Source: a virus (lineage: Duplodnaviria; Heunggongvirae; Uroviricota; Caudoviricetes). From it: a stretch of DNA of 7,299 bases. The position numbers were made by a program, and so were the translations under genes. The notes below the pieces were generated by a model. That model was not told where the DNA came from. It was given only the letters and a program-made list of their open reading frames with translations, and searched no databases. The stretch lies in the IMG/VR virus record IMGVR_UViG_2639763115_000004, positions 1-7,299 of that record; one strand, 5' to 3'. This document shows positions 1 through 7,299 of the stretch, piece after piece (positions within the stretch are counted from its first letter, which is position 1; every line of letters begins with the position of its first letter).

Positions 1-63
1 ATCATACTTCAGCACATTAGGAAAATAGAACTGCTGCGCACCATACGCATCATAAACAGCCAT
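1..63 (-). CDS. 5' end (21 codons, [21 protein letters not shown]) of the gene downstream of the O-like gene, in the position of a P/DnaC-like helicase loader; truncated by the window edge
   Basis: ATG at 63-61 (minus) preceded by a weak AAGG about 7 nt upstream; open to the window edge. Position only, no recognisable similarity. Confidence 0.25.
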
Positions 64-124
64 AGAATGGCCTTGCACGGTAACGAATTTGGCAATCTGT
101 CCGTTATATACAGGGTATCCTGTC

Positions 125-946
125 TCATGCAATCCCCCTGTCTGCAAACTTCCCTTCCCGTACTCCCGTTAACGAATCTTCCCTCAGCAGGTAATCAAAA
201 TCAGCTGTCCAGCCAGTGTCGTTGTCTCCGAAGTAAAACGGCTTGGCCTGATGCACAAACGCCCTGACATACGCTCTGAAACCGTCCACGTTTGGCGTTT
301 TCAGTTGCGGGATGATTTTCTTCAGGCGGCGTTTGCGTTTCTCATTGACCGCAACAGCGTGTGGCAGTCTGTCACCGACTTCGGTGTTGTAGGCGTTCAG
401 GAAGGATTCGTAGTCGATTCGTTCTGCCTTGCGACGTTCAGGTTTAACCTGCCCATCGCCGACCCCGTTAGGGGGTAAGGGGGTATTTGTATTTATTGTC
501 TTTTGTATATTGTCTTTTGTGTTTAGCTGACTTGGCTTATACCCATTAGCCGACTTGGCTAATGTTTTATTAGCTGTTTTAGCTAATGTTAAGCTGTCCT
601 GGCTAATCCACTGCGAAACCACCTTGTTCACTCCGATTTTCACGCCATCAGCAATGAGGAATTTACGCTCAATAAGCTGGCGCTTGGCAGCGCAAACATG
701 AGTGTGATGAATACCTGTCATGGCTGCTATCTGCGTGTTTGTGAGTCGATCCATCGGCTTATTGAATCCGTATGTCTTGCGCATGATAGCGAGCATCACC
801 TTCAGCTGCCGGACGGTTAAATCAGCCATCAGCAGACTGTCGGTAATCTCGTTAGCAACGCGCATGAAACCATCTTCGGTATCTGCCACGCGATGCTCCA
901 CGACCTCCAGTTGAGGCCTGTAATCAGCTAACTTAACGACGCCCAT
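125..946 (-). CDS. Replication initiator protein, lambda O-like N-terminal domain with a different C-terminal domain
   Basis: 273-aa ORF; AGGAG 7 nt upstream of the ATG at 946; N-terminal segment [29 protein letters not shown] aligns with recalled lambda O (ADLTKRQFKVLLAILRKTYGWNKPMDRIT); repetitive linker [18 protein letters not shown] encoded by DNA iterons. Confidence 0.85.
481..610. repeat. Putative replication origin iterons inside the O-like gene
   Basis: Tandem direct repeats: attgtcttttgt at 495-506 and 509-520; agctgacttggct at 525-537 with near-copy agccgacttggct at 548-560; ggctaat/agctaatg copies at 557-609. AT-rich and located at the O interdomain linker as in lambda ori. Confidence 0.5.
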
Positions 947-1094
947 GTTTCACTCCTGCTTTGGCTAGTCTGTAAACACCAACAAGGCGCTCTGCGAACG
1001 CCCTGTTATTTGCTGCGGCTACCACTAATCCCTCAGGTGAATCAGGGTGTCGAATCTCTTCTTTTTCCTGGTATTTCTTACGACGTTTTGTCAT
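933..1094 (-). CDS. Small basic hypothetical protein (53 aa, [53 protein letters not shown]) between cII and O
   Basis: Not in the ORF track (under 60 aa); found by manual translation. AGGAG 6 nt upstream of the ATG at 1094; stop overlaps the O-like start by 14 nt in a different frame. Confidence 0.4.
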   Translation of the reverse strand: MTKRRKKYQEKEEIRHPDSPEGLVVAAANNRAFAERLVGVYRLAKAGVKHGRR

Positions 1095-1128
1095 AATTAC
1101 TCCTGTGGATTGATCCAGTCTTTCTACA

Positions 1129-1410
1129 TCAGGCCTCGAAGAATTCGCCGTTCTTCGGGGCTTTTTCTTTTGTCAGGTAATTGGCAAGCCGCTTAGTCAG
1201 CTCAGCCATTTCATCGTCTTCGATTCCGTATTCCAGAACAGCCAGCATCATGCTTACCTGCGAGAAGAAACCATTCTTCCATCGGCTTACCTGATATTCA
1301 GGAACCCCCATTGCTCGAGCGAATGTCTTCTGCCCCATCAGTGCCAGTTTGTTCAGCAAGGCTGACTCGATGCGAGCCGCTTTCTTGCTTTTAGTTGCAA
1401 TAGTACCCAT
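1129..1410 (-). CDS. cII: CII-like transcriptional activator of lysogeny
   Basis: 93-aa ORF; RIESALLNK...QVSRWK...SMMLAVLEYGIEDDEMA aligns with recalled lambda CII (RIESALLNK...QISRWK...SMLLAVLEWGVVDDDMA), roughly 40 percent identity by eye; TAAGGAAAT-type RBS before the ATG at 1410. Confidence 0.85.
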   Translation of the reverse strand: MGTIATKSKKAARIESALLNKLALMGQKTFARAMGVPEYQVSRWKNGFFSQVSMMLAVLEYGIEDDEMAELTKRLANYLTKEKAPKNGEFFEA

Positions 1411-1486
1411 AGATAATTTCCTTAATGATTAGATAGAGTTGGCTTCGCAAAGAAACGCAAAACCATAGAGATTTGTTTCTGGTAAT

Positions 1487-1518
1487 GCCCTTTTTCAGGG
1501 CGGGGATGTGTAAGAGCG
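1487..1518 (-). promoter_or_regulatory. nutR (boxA CGCTCTTACA plus boxB GCCCTGAAAAAGGGC) between cro and cII
   Basis: Minus-strand reading CGCTCTTACACATCCCCGCCCTGAAAAAGGGC; close to recalled lambda nutR. boxB is a 5-bp stem with a GAAAAA loop. Confidence 0.7.
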
Positions 1519-1526
1519 AGAATGTC

Positions 1527-2879
<1,353 letters not shown>

Positions 2880-2928
2880 TCCCCACCTCAATCTCGATAA
2901 CCAAAAACAAACTATTTTTCATTTAAAA

Positions 2929-3002
2929 ACAACGGAGTTTGTTTTTCACGCCCCTTTTTACAATATATCTTGTTTACAACATACAATCTTTCTTGTGATT
3001 TT
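2929..3002 (+). promoter_or_regulatory. 434-type OL operators (2929-2942, 2960-2973, 2983-2996) and putative pL promoter
   Basis: Three ACAA-N6-TTGT sites (acaacggagtttgt, acaatatatcttgt, acaatctttcttgt); candidate -35 TTTACA at 2973-2978 and -10 GATTTT at 2997-3002, oriented toward nutL and N. Confidence 0.65.
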
Positions 3003-3040
3003 AAGCCATCAGCAGGACGCACTGACCACCATGAAGGTGA

Positions 3041-3071
3041 CGCTCTTAAAAATTAAGCCCTGAAGAAGGGC
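3041..3071 (+). promoter_or_regulatory. nutL (boxA CGCTCTTAA at 3041-3049, boxB GCCCTGAAGAAGGGC at 3057-3071)
   Basis: Identical to lambda nutL boxA/boxB as I recall them; boxB is a 5-bp stem with a GAAGA loop. Confidence 0.75.
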
Positions 3072-3243
3072 AGCATTCAAAGCAGAAGGCTTTGGGGTGT
3101 GGTGAAGGGTTCATGGATGGGAATATGTCGCACGTAAAGCGGCGAGGCCTGCGGAACTATTGCCGAATTGAAGTCGGCCGAAGCAGGTCGAAATGGGTCT
3201 CCCACCTACCACACCACCAAAGCTAACTGACAGGAGAATCCAG

Positions 3244-3831
3244 ATGGATGCACAAACACGCCGCCGCGAACGTCGCGCAGAGAAACAGGCTCAATGGAAA
3301 GCAGCAAATCCCCTGTTGGTTGGGGTAAGCGCAAAACCAGTTACCGTGCTTGCGCTTCTTGATGAACTGGAAGCTCAAAGCAAACGCATTGCAGAGCTGG
3401 AGAAAAAAGCTGCACCAGATTCGTTTGGCATCATCGGTGAAAATATTCGAACACAGGATAATCGAATAACGTCAGACCCTATGTTTTGTGTGTATCAAAA
3501 GCGCGAAATCGTTGTTGATGCTGATTATGACTATGACCGGATTGTCTGGGTTGATGAAGATGGTAATGAAGCCAATAAACGCCAAAGTCGTCGTCTCGAA
3601 CTACTTCACGAAAACTTTCGAGAGCCACCAGAAAAATGGCGGCGCGTTGCTGTGAAAGATATTGATGAATTCGTTACCTGCTGTTTCACCGAACAGGGTT
3701 GTAAATACTACCTAGCAGCCAATGGTCACAATCTTCGCTTGCCATTTATATATGTAAAAAGCGGTTTCAGGAACGCTGAATATATCGGCATAAGAAACTG
3801 GCTTGCTGGCATTCGCATCAAAGGAGAGTGA
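3244..3831 (+). CDS. N-like protein: lambda N arginine-rich motif (residues 1-33) fused to an unrelated C-terminal region of about 160 aa
   Basis: AGGAG at 3232-3236 then ATG at 3244; MDAQTRRRERRAEKQAQWKAANPLLVGVSAKPV matches recalled lambda N, then diverges completely (TVLALLDELEAQSKRIAELEKK...). The ORF-track start at 3193 lacks an RBS and is rejected. Confidence 0.65.
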   Translation: MDAQTRRRERRAEKQAQWKAANPLLVGVSAKPVTVLALLDELEAQSKRIAELEKKAAPDSFGIIGENIRTQDNRITSDPMFCVYQKREIVVDADYDYDRIVWVDEDGNEANKRQSRRLELLHENFREPPEKWRRVAVKDIDEFVTCCFTEQGCKYYLAANGHNLRLPFIYVKSGFRNAEYIGIRNWLAGIRIKGE

Positions 3832-3832
3832 T

Positions 3833-4096
3833 ATGGCAACTTTGACAAAAAAGGAACAGGCATGGTTGAGCGAATTACAGAACGTTCTTGATCGCTGCCC
3901 GTCACCGAAAAAAATTGGTTTTTACACCATTGGCGATAAAAGCATTTACCTGTATGACCTGCGCCGCATGGATGAAATCATGGAGGCTCTTGATAATCGT
4001 TCGTCGATGGATTGGTGTGTTGCTGTTCATGATATGAATGCAGGGTTTGATGAAAAGATTTTGTTCCCCTCATCAGTTGAAAGCACTGCGGGTTAA
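3833..4096 (+). CDS. Hypothetical protein (87 aa), tightly coupled to the N-like gene
   Basis: AAGGAGA at 3821-3827, ATG at 3833, two nt after the upstream stop at 3829-3831. No recognisable domain. Confidence 0.6.
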   Translation: MATLTKKEQAWLSELQNVLDRCPSPKKIGFYTIGDKSIYLYDLRRMDEIMEALDNRSSMDWCVAVHDMNAGFDEKILFPSSVESTAG

Positions 4097-4106
4097 GGAG
4101 TAACAC

Positions 4107-4703
4107 ATGACCACTATTACCAAAGAACGTATTGAATTGTTCATTAAAAATCCGCTTGAAAACGGACTTACCCGTGGCGAACAAATGGAACTGGCACGAA
4201 TTGCTCTGGCATCGCTGCAACGCGAACAGATTCGCCACGAGCATGCCAAATGGTCTGACTCCACATTTGGCTGCGTTGGCCCCATTGGTCCGCTGAAACA
4301 TCTCTCAAAAGAGGCACTGGAAGCCGCAGCCGAACCAGACGATCTTAGCGAGTGGGCTGATATGCAGTTTCTGTTGTGGGATGCACAGCGCCGTGCTGGC
4401 ATCAGCGATGCTGAAATTACCGCTGCTATGGAAGATAAATTGAAGATCAACATGGAGCGCCAGTGGCCTGAGCCAAAAGATGGTGAGCCTCGCTTGCACA
4501 TTAAAGAACCCGGCAACTCTCCGGTAATTCCGGATGGTTGGGTTATGGTGCCGAAGGAGTTAACCCCGGAAATGATGAGAGCCGTTCAGATTAGAAGTGA
4601 GCTTGGAGGGTATGCCACTTCCAATCTATCTGGTGCATACAATATGTTTTCTGAGTTCTGGAATGTTGCTGTCTCAGCTGCGCCTAAGGTGGATGATTTA
4701 TGA
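4107..4703 (+). CDS. Putative MazG-like nucleotide pyrophosphohydrolase (DUF550-like N-domain, DUF551-like C-terminal region)
   Basis: AAGGAG at 4095-4100; segment EALEAAAEPDDLSEWADMQFLLWDAQRRAGISDAEITAAMEDKLKINMERQW resembles the all-alpha MazG/NTP-PPase motif (EExxE ... ELGD-like ... KL.xNxxR). Confidence 0.55.
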   Translation: MTTITKERIELFIKNPLENGLTRGEQMELARIALASLQREQIRHEHAKWSDSTFGCVGPIGPLKHLSKEALEAAAEPDDLSEWADMQFLLWDAQRRAGISDAEITAAMEDKLKINMERQWPEPKDGEPRLHIKEPGNSPVIPDGWVMVPKELTPEMMRAVQIRSELGGYATSNLSGAYNMFSEFWNVAVSAAPKVDDL

Positions 4704-5002
4704 ATCTATATCGCTGCCCATTCTGTGGTTCCACTGTGCTTAACATCGGATACTCATTCAGTATCAGAGGGAAAATGCGCTATGTGTCATGCAAATGTGG
4801 TGCCCAAGGACCAGAAAAACGAACTAAATCTGAAGCGATTTCTTCATGGAATAGTCGAATGAAAGTATGGGTTTATGATCCAGAAACCATATTAAACGCT
4901 GAAGAGCGCAGGAGAACGGAAGTCTATATTCATAACCTTAATGAAGATGGATTTACACCAGTGCTTGTAAAGGCTACTCCGCAGGAGGTTAACCATGGCT
5001 AA
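4700..5002 (+). CDS. Lar-family putative restriction-alleviation (anti-restriction) protein with a C-terminal extension
   Basis: ATGA overlap with the upstream stop; N-terminus MNLYRCPFCGSTVL...CKCGAQGP...AISSWNSR has the CPFCG plus CxC plus A..WN.R signature I associate with Lar-family zinc-ribbon proteins. Confidence 0.55.
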   Translation: MNLYRCPFCGSTVLNIGYSFSIRGKMRYVSCKCGAQGPEKRTKSEAISSWNSRMKVWVYDPETILNAEERRRTEVYIHNLNEDGFTPVLVKATPQEVNHG

Positions 5003-5064
5003 CCTGCAACTTGCCGTCAAAGGTGAATAACAATCCTCGCACTCGCGGGGATTTCTTTTATCTG

Positions 5065-5090
5065 AACTCGCTACGGCGAGTTTTGTTTTA
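5065..5090 (+). terminator. Putative intrinsic terminator after the Lar-like gene
   Basis: Stem aactcgc (5065-5071), loop tacg, stem gcgagtt (5076-5082), then T-rich ttgtttta. Confidence 0.45.
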
Positions 5091-5102
5091 TGGAGATGAT
5101 AA

Positions 5103-5270
5103 ATGCACTTCCGAGTCACAGGTGAATGGAATGGAGAACCATTCAACAGAGTTATCGAAGCAGAGGACATCAACGACTGCTATAACCACTGGATGATATG
5201 GGCGCAGATAGCGCATGCAGACGTAACCAATATTCGAATTGAAGAACTGAAAGAACACCAAGCCGCCTGA
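5103..5270 (+). CDS. Small hypothetical prophage protein (55 aa, MHFRVTGEWNGEPFNRVIEAEDINDCYNHWMIWAQIAHADVTNIRIEELKEHQAA)
   Basis: GGAGA 7 nt upstream of the ATG at 5103; followed at once by a terminator hairpin. Not in the ORF track (under 60 aa). Confidence 0.5.
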   Translation: MHFRVTGEWNGEPFNRVIEAEDINDCYNHWMIWAQIAHADVTNIRIEELKEHQAA

Positions 5271-5283
5271 TGGCGGTTTTTTA
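5261..5283 (+). terminator. Putative intrinsic terminator
   Basis: ccgcc (5263-5267), loop tgat, ggcgg (5272-5276), then tttttt (5277-5282); overlaps the stop codon of the 55-aa gene. Confidence 0.55.
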
Positions 5284-5293
5284 TTGCCTGATT

Positions 5294-5308
5294 TGCAGGT
5301 TCGATTCC
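5294..5308 (+). other. tRNA-derived fragment: 15 nt identical to the T-arm 5' half of tRNA-Arg(CCU) argW (tgcaggttcgattcc)
   Basis: Exact 15-nt match to recalled argW, with degenerate similarity a few nt upstream; the rest of the tRNA is absent. Confidence 0.4.
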
Positions 5309-5327
5309 CTATTCGGAGATAGCACTC

Positions 5328-5528
5328 ATGCAACACGAACTACAGCCTGATTCACTGGTTGATTTGAAATTCATCATGGCCGATACTGGCTTCGGTAAAA
5401 CCTTCATCTACGACCGGATTAAGTCCGGCGACCTGCCAAAAGCCAAAGTTATCCACGGACGAGCAAGATGGTTATATCGTGACCATTGTGAATTCAAAAA
5501 TAAGCTCTTAAGCCGCGCTAATGGGTAA
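5328..5528 (+). CDS. torI: AlpA-family excisionase / recombination directionality factor (TorI-like, 66 aa)
   Basis: SLVDLKFIMADTGFGKTFIYDRIKSGDLPKAKVIHGRARWLY fits the AlpA/Xis winged-helix pattern; length and position next to an argW attR core fit KplE1 TorI as I recall it. GGAGA 8 nt upstream. Confidence 0.7.
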   Translation: MQHELQPDSLVDLKFIMADTGFGKTFIYDRIKSGDLPKAKVIHGRARWLYRDHCEFKNKLLSRANG

Positions 5529-5544
5529 AATAGCGGGTAAAATA
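5523..5544 (+). repeat. Tandem direct repeat gggtaaaata x2 (5523-5532, 5535-5544), candidate RDF or integrase arm-type binding sites
   Basis: Two exact 10-bp copies at a 12-bp period spanning the torI-like stop codon, about 60 bp from the att core. Confidence 0.35.
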
Positions 5545-5602
5545 TTTCTCACATCTAAAAAATATCATTCCAATCAATCCCCTGCCGCGCCAAGTAGATG
5601 TC

Positions 5603-5617
5603 TGCAGGGGACACCAT
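5603..5617 (+). other. Putative attR core: terminal 15 nt of tRNA-Arg(CCU) argW (ctgcaggggacacca)
   Basis: Exact match to the recalled argW 3' end including CCA; no intact tRNA upstream, so this is a duplicated att core rather than a gene. Confidence 0.6.
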
Positions 5618-6000
5618 TTATCCTTCCAACGAAATCCACCTTCCCCGCGTAAAAGTTGGGTTTGGCAGCACACTTGCCCTAAATCTACTCATTTTCCCTG
5701 CAACAGGTTGAAATCTCAGCACTGTGCGGCGATGACTAAACAGCCCCGGGCCTGGCAATGTATTCATCACACAGAATCCTGATCGCGAAATCTGGCTTGA
5801 CTCGATACTTCACTCCGCAATGCATTCCTTGATGGATTAGCAGGCCCGTGATACACGGGACAGGTCGCTGAATTACGACAATTTCCTGGAAATCAGCGAA
5901 CCGCGTATCCTGAGTACATTTGAGCGACTGTTCCAGAACATGAATGAGGCGTTTGGATTAGGCGATTATTAGCCGCGCTAAGCATTTTGGTATTATTATT

Positions 6001-6040
6001 TTCCGGTTGAGGGATATAGAGCTATCGACAACAACCGGAA
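6001..6040. repeat. 9-bp inverted repeat ttccggttg / caaccggaa with a 22-nt spacer, 12 bp downstream of the cscB stop
   Basis: Perfect reverse-complement arms at 6001-6009 and 6032-6040; no U-tract on the cscB transcript side, so not a canonical terminator. Confidence 0.3.
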
Positions 6041-6051
6041 AGAGTTTACGT

Positions 6052-7299
6052 CTATATTGCAGAAGGTACAGGCGTTTCCATCACCATTTGCTCACGCTTT
6101 TTACTCAGGAAGAAAATGCCAAATAACAACATCAGGCAGACAATACCCGAAATTACGAAGAAAACCGTCTGGTAACCTGCATGGTCAAAAAGTATTCCAG
6201 TCGGCGTTGAAAGCAACACAATCCCCAACGAACTAGCAATTTGAAAACCAATCAGAAAGATCGTCGACGACAGGCGCTTATCAAAGTTTGCCACGCTGTA
6301 TTTGAAGACGGAAATGACACACAGTGGAACCTCAATGGCATGTAACAGCTTCACTAATGAAATAATCCAGGGATTAACGAACAGTGCGCAGGAAAGAATA
6401 CGCAACGCCATAATCACAACACCGATAAGTAATGCATTTTTTGGCCCTACCCGGTTAACAAAGAAAGGAATAATGGCCATGCACAGCGCTTCGAGTACAA
6501 CCTGGAATGAGTTGAGATAACCATACAGGCGCGTTCCTACATCGTGTGATTCGAATAAACCTGCATAAAAAACAGGAAAGAGCTGTTGATCAAAAATGTT
6601 ATAGAAAGACCACGTCCCCACAATAAATATGACGAAAATCCAGAAGTTTCGATCCTTGAAAACTGCAATAAAATCCTCTTTTTTTACCCCTCCCGCATCT
6701 GCCGCTACGCACTGCTGATCCTGATATTTAAAACGCATGTTGATCATCATAAATACAGCGCCAAATAGCGAAACCAACCAGAAGTTGATATGGGGACTGA
6801 TACTGAAAAATATGCCAGCAAAGAACGCGCCAATCGCATAGCCAAAAGATCCCCAGGCGCGCGCTGTTCCATATTCGAAATGAAAATTTCGTGCCATTTT
6901 TTCGGTGAAGCTATCAAGCAGACCGCAGCCCGCCAGATACCCCAAGCCAAAAAAGAGCGCCCCCAAAATTAGACCTACAGAAAAATTGCTTTGCAGTAAC
7001 GGTTCATAAACGTAAATCATAAACGGTCCGGTCAAGACCAGGATGAAACTCATACACCAGATAAGCGGTTTCTTCAGACCGAGTTTATCCTGGACGATGC
7101 CGTAGACCATCATAAATAGAATACTGGTAAACTGGTTGACCGAATAAAGTGTACCTAATTCCGTCCCAGTCAACCCTAGATGTCCTTTCAGCCAAATAGC
7201 GTATAACGACCACCACAGCGACCAGGAAATAAAAAAGAGAAATGAGTAACTGGATGCAAAACGATAGTACACATTTCTGAATGGTATATTCAGTGCCAT
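6052..7299 (-). CDS. cscB: Sucrose:H+ symporter, LacY-family MFS oligosaccharide permease (CscB-like, 415 aa)
   Basis: Complete 415-aa ORF with its start codon at the window edge; multi-TM hydrophobic protein whose N-terminus MALNIPFRNVYYRFASSYSFLFFISWSLWW and length match CscB as I recall it; clear LacY-family similarity. Confidence 0.8.
   Translation of the reverse strand: MALNIPFRNVYYRFASSYSFLFFISWSLWWSLYAIWLKGHLGLTGTELGTLYSVNQFTSILFMMVYGIVQDKLGLKKPLIWCMSFILVLTGPFMIYVYEPLLQSNFSVGLILGALFFGLGYLAGCGLLDSFTEKMARNFHFEYGTARAWGSFGYAIGAFFAGIFFSISPHINFWLVSLFGAVFMMINMRFKYQDQQCVAADAGGVKKEDFIAVFKDRNFWIFVIFIVGTWSFYNIFDQQLFPVFYAGLFESHDVGTRLYGYLNSFQVVLEALCMAIIPFFVNRVGPKNALLIGVVIMALRILSCALFVNPWIISLVKLLHAIEVPLCVISVFKYSVANFDKRLSSTIFLIGFQIASSLGIVLLSTPTGILFDHAGYQTVFFVISGIVCLMLLFGIFFLSKKREQMVMETPVPSAI

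Follow-up and report, generated by a model that had tools for sequence, protein, structure and literature searches.

Introduction

In lambdoid phages, the exo-xis region influences lysis-lysogeny decisions and prophage induction, including those of the Shiga-toxin phages. The position of this region, between the recombination genes and xis, is conserved, and the region as such is poorly understood (PMC7093339, PMC8614690). The same placement is met in the gene orders of phages lambda, Sf6, VSe13 and ST64T and of E. coli SH21PTE31. In lambda, the compartment contains orf60a, orf63, orf61, ea22, ea8.5 and an ORF of 55 codons. The order in Shigella phage Sf6 is erf, followed further on by gp21 (Ea22-like), gp20 (Lar), gp19, gp18 (xis), attP and int, while Salmonella phage VSe13 has Ea22-like, Orf-87 and DUF550 genes and, further on, xis and int; ST64T is equivalent. 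SH21PTE31 carries genes for a Rad52-like protein, Ssb, an anti-RecBCD protein, an Ea22-like protein, a hypothetical protein, a DUF550 protein, Lar, a second hypothetical protein, an HTH-type regulator, which occupies the position of xis, and Int. In the Rac prophage, the order is recT, ralR (lar), rcbA, xisR and intR.

The Lar protein of Rac (RalR) is the only characterised member of its family, and two different functions have been reported for it, relief of restriction and a toxic DNase activity (PMC4041452). King & Murray (1995) described alleviation of type I (EcoKI-type) restriction together with enhanced modification, an assignment which Guo et al. (2014; PMC4041452) dispute. DUF550 (PF04447) belongs to the MazG-like, all-alpha NTP pyrophosphohydrolases and bears the Pfam name 'dATP/dGTP pyrophosphohydrolase'. 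The measurement behind this name was made on a two-domain protein of the Z-genome phage SH-Ab 15497 that joins DUF5664 to DUF550, and DUF5664 by itself has an activity similar to that of the fusion (PMC12884076). For the SH-Ab 15497 enzyme and for MazZ of cyanophage S-2L, the reported chemistry is the conversion of (d)GTP or dATP to the monophosphate and pyrophosphate (PMC12884076), and roles as metal ligands and as base or phosphate contacts have been assigned to individual MazZ residues (PMC8342488).

Here, we describe a cluster of three genes at positions 3833-5002 of a 7,299-nt stretch of viral DNA (the window; positions 1 to 7,299 of IMG/VR record IMGVR_UViG_2639763115_000004). We estimate a probability of roughly 80% that this cluster is the distal, exo-xis accessory segment of the pL operon of a lambdoid prophage, which came to adjoin N through a deletion of about 4 kb and whose products have the functions predicted below.

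Results

Three intact genes with tight junctions

An earlier note on this DNA had described three tightly packed ORFs, all of which proved intact: orf87 (3833-4096, 87 aa), an eaA-type gene (4107-4703, 198 aa) and a lar-like gene (4700-5002, 100 aa, with its TAA stop codon at 5000-5002), each on the plus strand. The stop/start junctions reported there could likewise be read off the sequence. The ORF upstream of orf87 ends with TGA at 3829-3831 and the ATG of orf87 at 3833 follows one base later, while the ATGA at 4700-4703 places the start of the lar-like gene over the stop of the eaA-type gene. Every start of the trio has one Shine-Dalgarno-like motif (GGAG, AAGGAG and AAGGTGGA) 6-8 nt upstream. 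Given matches to phrog_1714, PF04447 and TIGR03655/PF14354, as well as the number of Orf-87 homologues that keep the same length, these are real genes and not chance ORFs. They are built from standard mosaic modules and, we propose, translationally coupled. The window contains no detectable tRNA, and an Rfam search of its whole length in E-value mode returned just a chance-level Leu-leader match on the hairpins downstream of lar.

An exo-xis segment placed next to N by deletion

The three genes are usual exo-xis ('ea') accessory genes, which lie directly before xis in P22/Sf6/HK022-type phages. Sf6 resembles the window most closely at its distal end: gp20 (Lar) is 99% identical, the 63 residues encoded before it are 98% identical, the xis/TorI product is 100% identical and the att core is the same. 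However, in Sf6 an Ea22-like gene takes the place of the DUF550 gene upstream of lar, and lar is followed by gp19 instead of the 55-aa ORF. At the proximal end, VSe13 and ST64T have the same order and spacing of Ea22-like, Orf-87 and EaA (DUF550) genes. Their Ea22-like genes also end in ...GIRIKGE, with orf87 beginning one base on, but are complete and carry no N fusion; their EaA either ends in another C-terminal module or has a separate DUF551 gene behind it, and lar does not follow. The exo-xis region of lambda constitutes the same compartment with the same early, pL-driven logic and shares with the window an Ea22-type gene ending in GIRIKGE and the 55-aa ORF (96% identity), whereas it lacks Orf-87, DUF550 and Lar genes.

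Judged by sequence identity, the trio is ordinary: its modules are about 98-100% identical to annotated genes of Sf6, VSe13 and ST64T and of many E. coli genomes, and the 55-aa ORF is 96% identical to that of lambda. Of 5426 complete E. coli genomes, 1606 have one module or more, and part of the trio is also found in 98 phage records. The exact three-gene combination was found in none of the 5426 complete E. coli genomes and in none of 50,697 phage records; pairs were the most that was met elsewhere, with mosaic breakpoints both between and within the genes.

How the trio came to lie beside N can be read from the ORF that precedes orf87. This ORF (3244-3831, plus strand) joins N codons 1-33 in frame to the 3' portion of an ead/Ea22-like gene, with the junction at 3342-3346. 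This 'N chimera' of the earlier note is thus real: the ORF matches PF11438 (N36) and PF13935, its first 33 residues are those of lambda N as found in PDB entries, and the remainder corresponds to the 3' part of the ead/Ea22-like gene. At the DNA level, 3244-3346 matches the N gene of the Ec-U18 prophage and 3342-3835 the Ea22-like gene of SH21PTE31, with 4-5 bp of microhomology, (T)ACCG, at the junction. The Ec-U18 prophage, located at the same cscB-side site, has an intact N and about 3.85 kb of additional DNA. Compared with these relatives, rather than with the true ancestor, about 4 kb are missing between codon 33/34 of N and a point midway in the Ea22-like gene, which is why the trio adjoins N. 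We suggest that an illegitimate deletion at the microhomology took away the distal two thirds of N along with the 5' portion of the Ea22-like gene, and that tL1, the intrinsic terminator after N in lambda, would have been lost together with kil/cIII-type genes and the recombination genes.

Two claims of the earlier note do not survive this comparison. It had held that the trio replaces ea10/ral/sieB/kil/cIII and the recombination genes, but intact relatives carry the modules after the recombination genes and directly before xis. It had also seen a coupling of the 87-aa protein to the N chimera, which turns out to be the ordinary Ea22-to-Orf-87 junction, given that the Ea22-like/Orf-87/DUF550 array of VSe13 has identical one-base spacing.

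Expression signals and the prophage end

Upstream of the fusion, a site at 3041-3071 (plus strand) consists of boxA CGCTCTTAA at 3041-3049 and a boxB hairpin at 3057-3071; it was read from the sequence, and the hairpin was found on the minus strand by a scan for promoters and terminators. We take this nutL-like site to correspond to nutL of lambda. Two terminator-like hairpins with T-runs occupy the spacer after lar (5032-5083, plus strand), and a further hairpin with a T-run is located at 5260-5279, after the 55-aa ORF. Between 2800 and 5032, the scan yielded no plus-strand terminator-like site, and three such sites afterwards; it is a simple consensus match that also misses pL itself. The 55-aa ORF (5103-5270, plus strand) is lambdap35 of lambda, a small ORF situated there between ea8.5 and xis (96% identity; phrog_676 at E 2e-39). 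It is followed by the gene for a TorI-type excisionase, xis (5328-5528, plus strand), whose product is 100% identical to Sf6 gp18 and matches phrog_66, and whose counterpart is annotated as torI in E. coli genomes. The prophage ends at an Sf6/HK620-type att core, CTGCAGGGGACACCAT (5602-5617), an exact match to the annotated attP core of Sf6, and homology to Sf6 stops at 5622. Since the Sf6/KplE1-type attP is located between xis and int, these two genes come to lie at opposite ends of the prophage, and the idea that the prophage had lost its integrase was dropped.

If the 434-type repressor were inactivated, transcription from pL would be expected to pass through the fusion, orf87, eaA and lar with no need for antitermination and to end either at the hairpins that follow lar or at the one downstream of the 55-aa ORF. 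The genes might also be silent passengers of a crippled prophage, intact for the sole reason that the deletion is recent, and useless to the host. N is cut down to its first 33 residues, pL lies under a 434-type repressor gene that is present and intact, the consensus scan detected no internal plus-strand promoter-like site, and the fusion is encoded by a single contig of the public collection, which was found in two samples; all of this is compatible with such a state. However, the three frames are full length and 98-100% identical to their counterparts in phage isolates and would therefore work if transcribed, and any terminator between pL and the cluster has been deleted, so that expression upon derepression would, if anything, be easier than in the intact phage. 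We regard silence as possible but less likely than not. This alternative concerns the use of the genes in the source strain and not their identity.

Orf-87, a conserved early protein

According to the earlier note, the 87-aa protein belonged to no recognisable family. This holds for Pfam, NCBIfam, PADLOC and the PDB, none of which gave a match; in PHROGs, however, the protein is a member of phrog_1714, the uncharacterised family of ST64T Orf-87, with a full-length profile match (E 1.2e-50, residues 1-87 of 87). The name Orf-87 itself stems from the annotation of phage FSL SP-030 gp43. The protein is 99% identical to VSe13 gp27, and ST64Tp10 stands in the equivalent position. We collected 142 homologues of conserved length, and an exhaustive profile search with the Orf-87 alignment returned 197 cluster representatives at 50% identity, nearly all of them stand-alone proteins of 80-90 aa. 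The few longer representatives carry no Pfam domain, and one of them (P0289) is a read-through from an Ea22-like gene; hence, none provides an informative fusion. Conservation is strong, with an invariant core, CPSP...YDLR, and a STAG tail at the C-terminus. Structure prediction gives a small alpha/beta protein whose fold is modelled with confidence and has no known structural analogue. Homologues are scattered over the early regions of unrelated phages, including lambdoid, P2-like, virulent Chi-like and Vibrio phages, and the neighbourhoods of the distant ones revealed no constant partner gene.

A DUF550 protein with a swapped C-terminal module

The 198-aa product of the eaA-type gene is a mosaic protein, 100% identical to the 'eaa protein' of E. 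coli E1520, with a central DUF550 domain at residues 42-137 (4230-4517, plus strand). The domain matches PF04447 at 143.1 bits (cut-off 23; E 3.3e-42) over profile positions 1-96 of 97, and a profile of eight diverse DUF550 proteins (alignment A2) finds MazZ (PDB 7ODY) at E 2.4e-8. On this sequence-profile basis, the earlier assignment of a MazG-like enzyme is upheld. Nine residues (E69, E72, E82, D85, D92, K111, N115, R118 and W120) are invariant in the eight proteins, which come from Enterobacterales, Paracoccus, Pseudomonas and a Mycobacterium phage, and align with MazZ E35, E38, E50, D53, D60, K76, N80, R83 and W85. As aligned, all metal- and nucleotide-binding residues of MazZ are present in the EaA-type protein. 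We therefore place both proteins in the same superfamily by profile, although pairwise similarity is weak (E 0.3) and EaA has additional N- and C-terminal modules that MazZ lacks. By analogy, EaA may hydrolyse dGTP, and possibly dATP, to the monophosphate and pyrophosphate, with metal ions presumably held by E69, E72, E82 and D85.

Because the name of the DUF550 family and its sole measured activity go back to Z-genome phages (PMC12884076, PMC8342488), we considered whether the enzyme might belong to a pathway for 2-aminoadenine (Z-base) DNA. Unlike the SH-Ab 15497 enzyme, EaA has no DUF5664 domain and no PurZ/DatZ/DpoZ context: PurZ-, DatZ- and DpoZ-like genes were seen neither in the window nor in the annotated left-arm stretches of SH21PTE31, Sf6, VSe13 and ST64T. 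In addition, DUF550 genes are widespread, occurring in 512 phage records that include P22-like phages, Klebsiella Webervirus and mycobacteriophages, whereas the DUF550 proteins of Z-phages are treated as a separate monophyletic group (PMC12884076). With no purZ, datZ or dpoZ seen in the window or in these left arms, a Z-genome pathway at this locus is effectively refuted, and we consider it extremely improbable.

Residues 136-198 of EaA (4512-4703, plus strand) form a swapped mosaic segment that travels with lar. The segment is 98% identical, over 63 residues, to the C-terminus of the Ea22-like protein Sf6 gp21, and DNA matches to Sf6 and to Stx1a phages start at 4512 and extend through lar. 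VSe13 EaA, in turn, is 98% identical to the window protein over residues 1-146 and then has a different C-terminus. All three proteins share the linker GNSPV..DGW. Neither the C-terminal module nor the N-terminal segment of EaA matched Pfam even at E 10, and the same applies to the C-terminal extension of the Lar-like protein.

The Lar-like protein and its downstream region

The Lar-like protein scores above both curated cut-offs, with 59.5 bits against TIGR03655 (cut-off 39.6) and 36.1 bits against PF14354 (cut-off 28.6), in agreement with its earlier assignment. It is 99% identical to Sf6 gp20, annotated in RefSeq as Lar-like restriction alleviation protein, over all 100 residues. A core of about 55 aa contains C6, C9, C31 and C33, a four-cysteine pattern that is conserved in homologues and probably forms a zinc ribbon, and is followed by a conserved C-terminal extension of 46 aa. 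The protein shares with Rac Lar/RalR the TIGR03655 model, the CxxC...CxC pattern and a WN(S/K)R motif. The first CxxC of RalR corresponds to C6 and C9 in the alignment, and RalR has a second C-x2-C in the matching segment. Identity to RalR is just 34% over 53 aa, and of the two proteins, it is the one in the window that has the 46-aa extension. An all-against-all BLASTP comparison at E 1e-3 gave no match between the Lar-like protein and lambda Ral, the restriction alleviator that is encoded near N in lambda and has no detectable similarity to it. A literature search for Lar-like proteins yielded routine annotation mentions only. We expect the Lar-like protein to act most likely as a modulator of type I restriction-modification upon infection or induction, and an anti-defence role is plausible for this candidate.

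The founding member of the Lar family, RalR, has been reported to act as a non-specific DNase that is kept in check by RalA, a small RNA from the adjacent opposite strand (PMC4041452). Both lar genes lie directly before xis at the far end of a leftward operon, and lar in the window is followed by a structured spacer of 100 nt. Consequently, one could picture lar as the DNase toxin of a type I toxin-antitoxin pair, with an antisense sRNA encoded downstream, that stabilises the prophage remnant. The window differs from Rac in having neither a RalA-like RNA nor an rcbA homologue: a short-word BLAST with the ralA/rcbA/ralR region of Rac found no ralA similarity, Rfam gave no match, an inverted-repeat search for a RalA-like antitoxin at lar was negative, and the consensus scan showed no minus-strand promoter-like site 3' of lar, where such an RNA would start. 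The RalR/RalA pair is characterised by a neighbouring small RNA, encoded on the opposite strand, that is complementary to the coding region of the toxin over about 16 nt. In the window, pairing between the lar coding region and the 330 nt that follow it amounts at best to 11 of 12 nt (4775-4786 with 5205-5216), a value reached by 12 of 100 shuffles. The 55-aa ORF, which was also considered as a relative of RcbA and is unrelated to it, occurs behind other genes as well, such as lambda ea8.5 and an ASCH-domain gene in Ec-U18, and is therefore not a dedicated partner of lar; in Sf6, another gene comes after the same lar. A toxin function of this kind appears quite unlikely to us.

Discussion

Our preferred reading, an exo-xis accessory segment relocated by deletion, differs from the proposal that the trio is a dedicated anti-defence or host-takeover island standing in place of ral/sieB/kil/cIII and the recombination genes, with Lar as an inhibitor of type I restriction, the MazG-like enzyme breaking down nucleotide signals or alarmones and the 87-aa protein acting with the N chimera. 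Such an island is a sensible conjecture. The matches to the Lar and MazG-like families are real, the genes are early, small and mosaic, and the occurrence of Orf-87 and DUF550 in many unrelated temperate and virulent phages is a pattern typical of counter-defence genes. However, proximity to N is the product of a deletion and not a designed replacement, and in intact phages the trio genes are far from N. The coupling of orf87 is to Ea22-like genes in general, as in VSe13 and in the P0289 read-through, and the trio is not inherited as a unit. None of its proteins matched a PADLOC model, although that library covers defence rather than anti-defence proteins. Lastly, the nucleobase-contact residues of EaA fit a dGTP-type pocket, with D92 corresponding to MazZ D60, a fit that does not point to cyclic nucleotides as the substrate. 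Taken as a whole, we judge the island unlikely.

A related view would cast Orf-87 as a new-fold protein that serves counter-defence or host takeover, and EaA as an offensive manipulator of purine dNTP pools or of nucleotide-derived immune signals in ordinary, A-containing phages. We hold this combination of roles to be improbable as well.

As a discovery, the trio carries little weight, given that every module has already been deposited and annotated. The labels under which the modules are known, 'Lar family restriction alleviation protein' and 'dATP/dGTP pyrophosphohydrolase', each derive from one or two experiments on distant or fused relatives. Recognition of the exo-xis segment corrects the adjacency to N to a deletion scar, and the locus is therefore uninformative with respect to a new organisation of early-left genes. 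Orf-87 and the C-terminal module of EaA, both conserved, occur commonly in the exo-xis region and have so far been left wholly uncharacterised; they are targets for experiment.

Family assignment of the three genes

The three compact, tightly joined genes that had been proposed at 3833-5002 were confirmed from the sequence as orf87 (3833-4096, 87 aa), eaA (4107-4703, 198 aa) and a lar-like gene (4700-5002, 100 aa), all on the plus strand. The first follows the upstream stop codon in a TGA-t-ATG arrangement (3829-3835), the last two overlap in an ATGA (4700-4703), and a ribosome-binding motif precedes every start. HMM searches bore out the MazG-like and Lar assignments of the earlier note: the 198-aa protein matches DUF550 (PF04447) with 143 bits (cut-off 23), and the 100-aa protein matches TIGR03655 with 59.5 bits (cut-off 39.6) and PF14354 with 36.1 bits (cut-off 28.6). 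The 87-aa protein, which was thought to have no recognisable family, matches phrog_1714 from end to end (E 1e-50) and belongs to a compact family. Public phage and E. coli records already contain all of these components, with annotation. The lar call of the source assembly starts at an internal ATG at 4775 (4777 on the assembly contig, where the call spans 4777-5004) and yields a 75-aa product that drops the first CxxC of the zinc ribbon; the Lar family model match begins at residue 3 of the 100-aa form, whose start lies in the ATGA overlap.

A deletion places the genes next to N

The open reading frame upstream of orf87 (3193/3244-3831, plus strand) is a fusion: its first part is residues 1-33 of lambda N, in full agreement with the N chains of PDB entries, and the remainder corresponds to the last two thirds of an ead/Ea22-like protein (PF13935, phrog_3205). 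Positions 3244-3346 align with the intact N gene of the Ec-U18 prophage, which occupies the same cscB-side site, and for positions 3342-3835 the counterpart is the 3' part of the Ea22-like gene in E. coli SH21PTE31. Five bases (3342-3346) belong to both alignments, with (T)ACCG common to both sequences at the crossover, and in Ec-U18 the two fusion points are ~3.85 kb apart. This interval carries what is left of N and small ORFs, together with genes for a Rad52-type annealing protein, Ssb, an exonuclease and anti-RecBCD, as well as others. As read from these alignments, the fusion is the product of an in-frame illegitimate deletion of ~4 kb at the (T)ACCG microhomology. The trio therefore adjoins N by deletion, and the proposal that it replaces the early-left genes of lambda is wrong. 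Similarly, the coupling supposed to link orf87 with the N chimera does not hold: GIRIKGE is the C-terminal end of the Ea22-like proteins of lambda and of the Salmonella phage VSe13 as well as of the fusion, and the junction is thus an ordinary Ea22-to-orf87 junction. A single contig of the public gene-position collection codes for the fusion, which is therefore a strain-specific lesion.

Lambda N contacts boxB through residues 1-22, NusA through residues 34-47 and RNA polymerase through its C-terminus. The fusion retains the arginine-rich boxB-binding motif and lacks the parts that bind NusA and RNA polymerase; with these residues gone, antitermination should be beyond its ability. A consensus scan, which is crude and missed pL itself, returned no plus-strand terminator-like site in 2800-5032. 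The same scan returned tandem hairpin/T-run sites at 5032-5053 and 5064-5083, in the 100-nt spacer between lar and the 55-aa ORF (5003-5102), and a further plus-strand site at 5260-5279, directly 3' of that ORF. Because the deletion took out the DNA that holds tL1 in lambda, we infer that derepression of pL would allow the fusion, orf87, eaA and lar to be transcribed without antitermination, while transcription, with functional N absent, would probably halt ahead of xis.

A mosaic in the exo-xis region

Judging from gene order, the modules of the trio lie in intact relatives at the distal end of the leftward operon, preceded by recombination genes and followed by xis. SH21PTE31 carries Ea22-like, hypothetical, DUF550, Lar and hypothetical genes, then an HTH-type regulator in the xis position and int; Sf6 has gp21 (Ea22-like), gp20 (Lar-like), gp19, gp18 (xis), attP and int; VSe13 has Ea22-like, the 87-aa gene and DUF550; and ST64T has Ea22-like, Orf-87, DUF550, DUF551, eag, eac, xis and int. 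The corresponding orders are recT, ralR (lar), rcbA, xisR and intR in Rac, and exo, orf60a, orf63, orf61, ea22, ea8.5, a 55-aa ORF, xis and int in lambda. The literature calls this stretch the exo-xis region; its position is conserved, its content is a mosaic, and understanding of it is poor (PMC7093339, PMC8614690).

Protein comparisons mark the cluster as a mosaic of known modules. Orf-87 is closest to VSe13 gp27 (99% identity), EaA residues 1-146 to VSe13 EaA (98%), EaA residues 136-198 to the C-terminus of Sf6 gp21 (98%), the Lar-like protein to Sf6 gp20 (99%), the 55-aa ORF product to lambdap35, the same small gene in lambda (96%), and Xis to Sf6 gp18 (100%). At the swap point within EaA lies a linker, GNSPV..DGW, common to the aligned proteins, and over its full length EaA is 100% identical to an 'eaa protein' of E. 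coli E1520. The C-terminal module at 4512-4703, with the motif GW(V/I)MVP.E.T.EM and no Pfam family, ends otherwise unrelated exo-xis proteins, namely the Ea22-like gp21 of Sf6, the DUF550 protein studied here and a 339-aa DUF550 protein on a Salmonella diarizonae contig (L011 4393-5412). At least part of the trio is carried by 1606 of 5426 complete E. coli genomes and by 98 of 50,697 phage records; the pairs orf87 plus eaA and eaA plus lar occur in these collections, and all three genes together (at least 80% coverage) occur in none of the genomes or phage records.

The prophage and its boundary

The window is the left arm of a lambdoid prophage. The minus strand carries an O-type replication gene (125-946), a cII-type gene (1129-1410) and a Cro-type helix-turn-helix gene (1527-1742), and the plus strand a LexA/S24-type repressor gene (1846-2478), a 134-aa gene (2475-2879), the fusion, the trio, the 55-aa ORF (5103-5270) and an excisionase-type gene (5328-5528). 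The attP core of Sf6/HK620, CTGCAGGGGACACCAT, is reproduced exactly at 5602-5617 and homology to Sf6 stops at 5622, which together place the prophage end at 5602-5622; int is expected at the opposite end from xis, as in Sf6/KplE1-type phages. The host flank is the csc sucrose locus, beginning with the sucrose permease gene cscB (6052-7299, minus strand). In assembly GCA_000812765.1 the window is nt 3-7301 of contig JWKK01000017.1, which runs on to cscK, cscA, cscR and dsdA. The non-coding stretch between prophage end and cscB (5700-6050) is probably a remnant of a different element; a short DUF4942-domain fragment is annotated in the equivalent region of Ec-U18.

The immunity region (1527-2478 and 2940-3000) appears to be of the phage 434 type, its cI and cro products corresponding to the 434 repressor and 434 Cro. 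Operators of the form ACAA...TTGT can be seen to either side, and the region is paired here with lambda-type nutL and N. The 134-aa ORF overlaps the repressor stop codon and occupies the rexAB position of lambda. It matches phrog_2651 and returned no match in Pfam, NCBIfam or PADLOC; its N-terminus is hydrophobic. Its predicted product is probably secreted or a lipoprotein, and the gene could serve in lysogenic conversion or exclusion.

Predicted functions of the encoded proteins

A pairwise PDB search with EaA returned MazZ of cyanophage S-2L (7ODY) as its sole match (E 0.3), and a profile built from eight DUF550 proteins of Escherichia, Salmonella, Klebsiella, Paracoccus, Pseudomonas and Mycobacterium phages matched MazZ with E 2.4e-8. 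The invariant columns of this alignment include E69, E72, E82, D85, D92, K111, N115, R118 and W120, which align with MazZ E35, E38, E50, D53, D60, K76, N80, R83 and W85. In MazZ, E35, E38, E50 and D53 are strictly conserved metal ligands, D60 touches the guanine 2-amino group, and K76, N80, R83 and W85 are pocket residues from the second chain (PMC8342488). The profile match and the aligned ligand and pocket residues support the MazG-like assignment, and EaA looks catalytically competent, with an apparent purine, guanine-type pocket. The activity behind the Pfam name is that of a DUF5664-DUF550 fusion from phage SH-Ab 15497, and DUF5664 by itself has similar activity (PMC12884076). No Z-base genes were seen at this locus, and 512 phage records, for the most part of ordinary phages, include DUF550 genes.

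Membership of the 100-aa protein in the Lar family is firm. It shares no more than 34% identity across 53 residues with Rac Lar/RalR and carries a C-terminal extension of 46 residues, strongly conserved and absent from RalR. This Rac protein, the founding member of the family, was first reported as a restriction alleviator; a later account described it as a non-specific DNase toxin whose control by the small RNA RalA depends on 16-nt complementarity (PMC4041452). A search for a RalA-like partner gave no ralA similarity and no Rfam match, and lar is complementary to the 330 nt that follow it over at most 11/12 nt, a level equalled by 12% of shuffles. Any function assigned to the protein would thus be borrowed from a distant, disputed relative. 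The anti-defence island suggested in the earlier note is a hypothetical function of the trio.

Orf-87 has 142 homologues in Enterobacterales and 197 representatives at 50% identity among 1.84 billion proteins, almost all of them stand-alone proteins of 80-90 aa, with strong conservation in a CPSPKKIGFYTIGD...YDLRR core and in FPS.VESTAG at the extreme C-terminus. None of the longer members has a known domain; one of them represents read-through out of an Ea22-like gene. Homologues lie directly upstream of eaA in P22-like phages, apart from Ea22 in an Edwardsiella lambdoid prophage, immediately 3' of replication gene A in P2-like Pectobacterium prophages (L009/L010 3501-3749) and amid nucleotide-metabolism genes in virulent Chi-like Salmonella phages; in FSL SP-030 (L013 2501-2764) the neighbours are ThyX, PAPS-reductase-like and nucleoside 2-deoxyribosyltransferase-like genes. 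Vibrio phages also carry homologues. No constant partner gene appeared across the neighbourhoods compared, and this distribution fits a self-contained accessory factor. What interest the locus retains lies in the roles of Orf-87, of the C-terminal module of EaA and of the DUF550 enzymes carried by phages whose DNA is ordinary.
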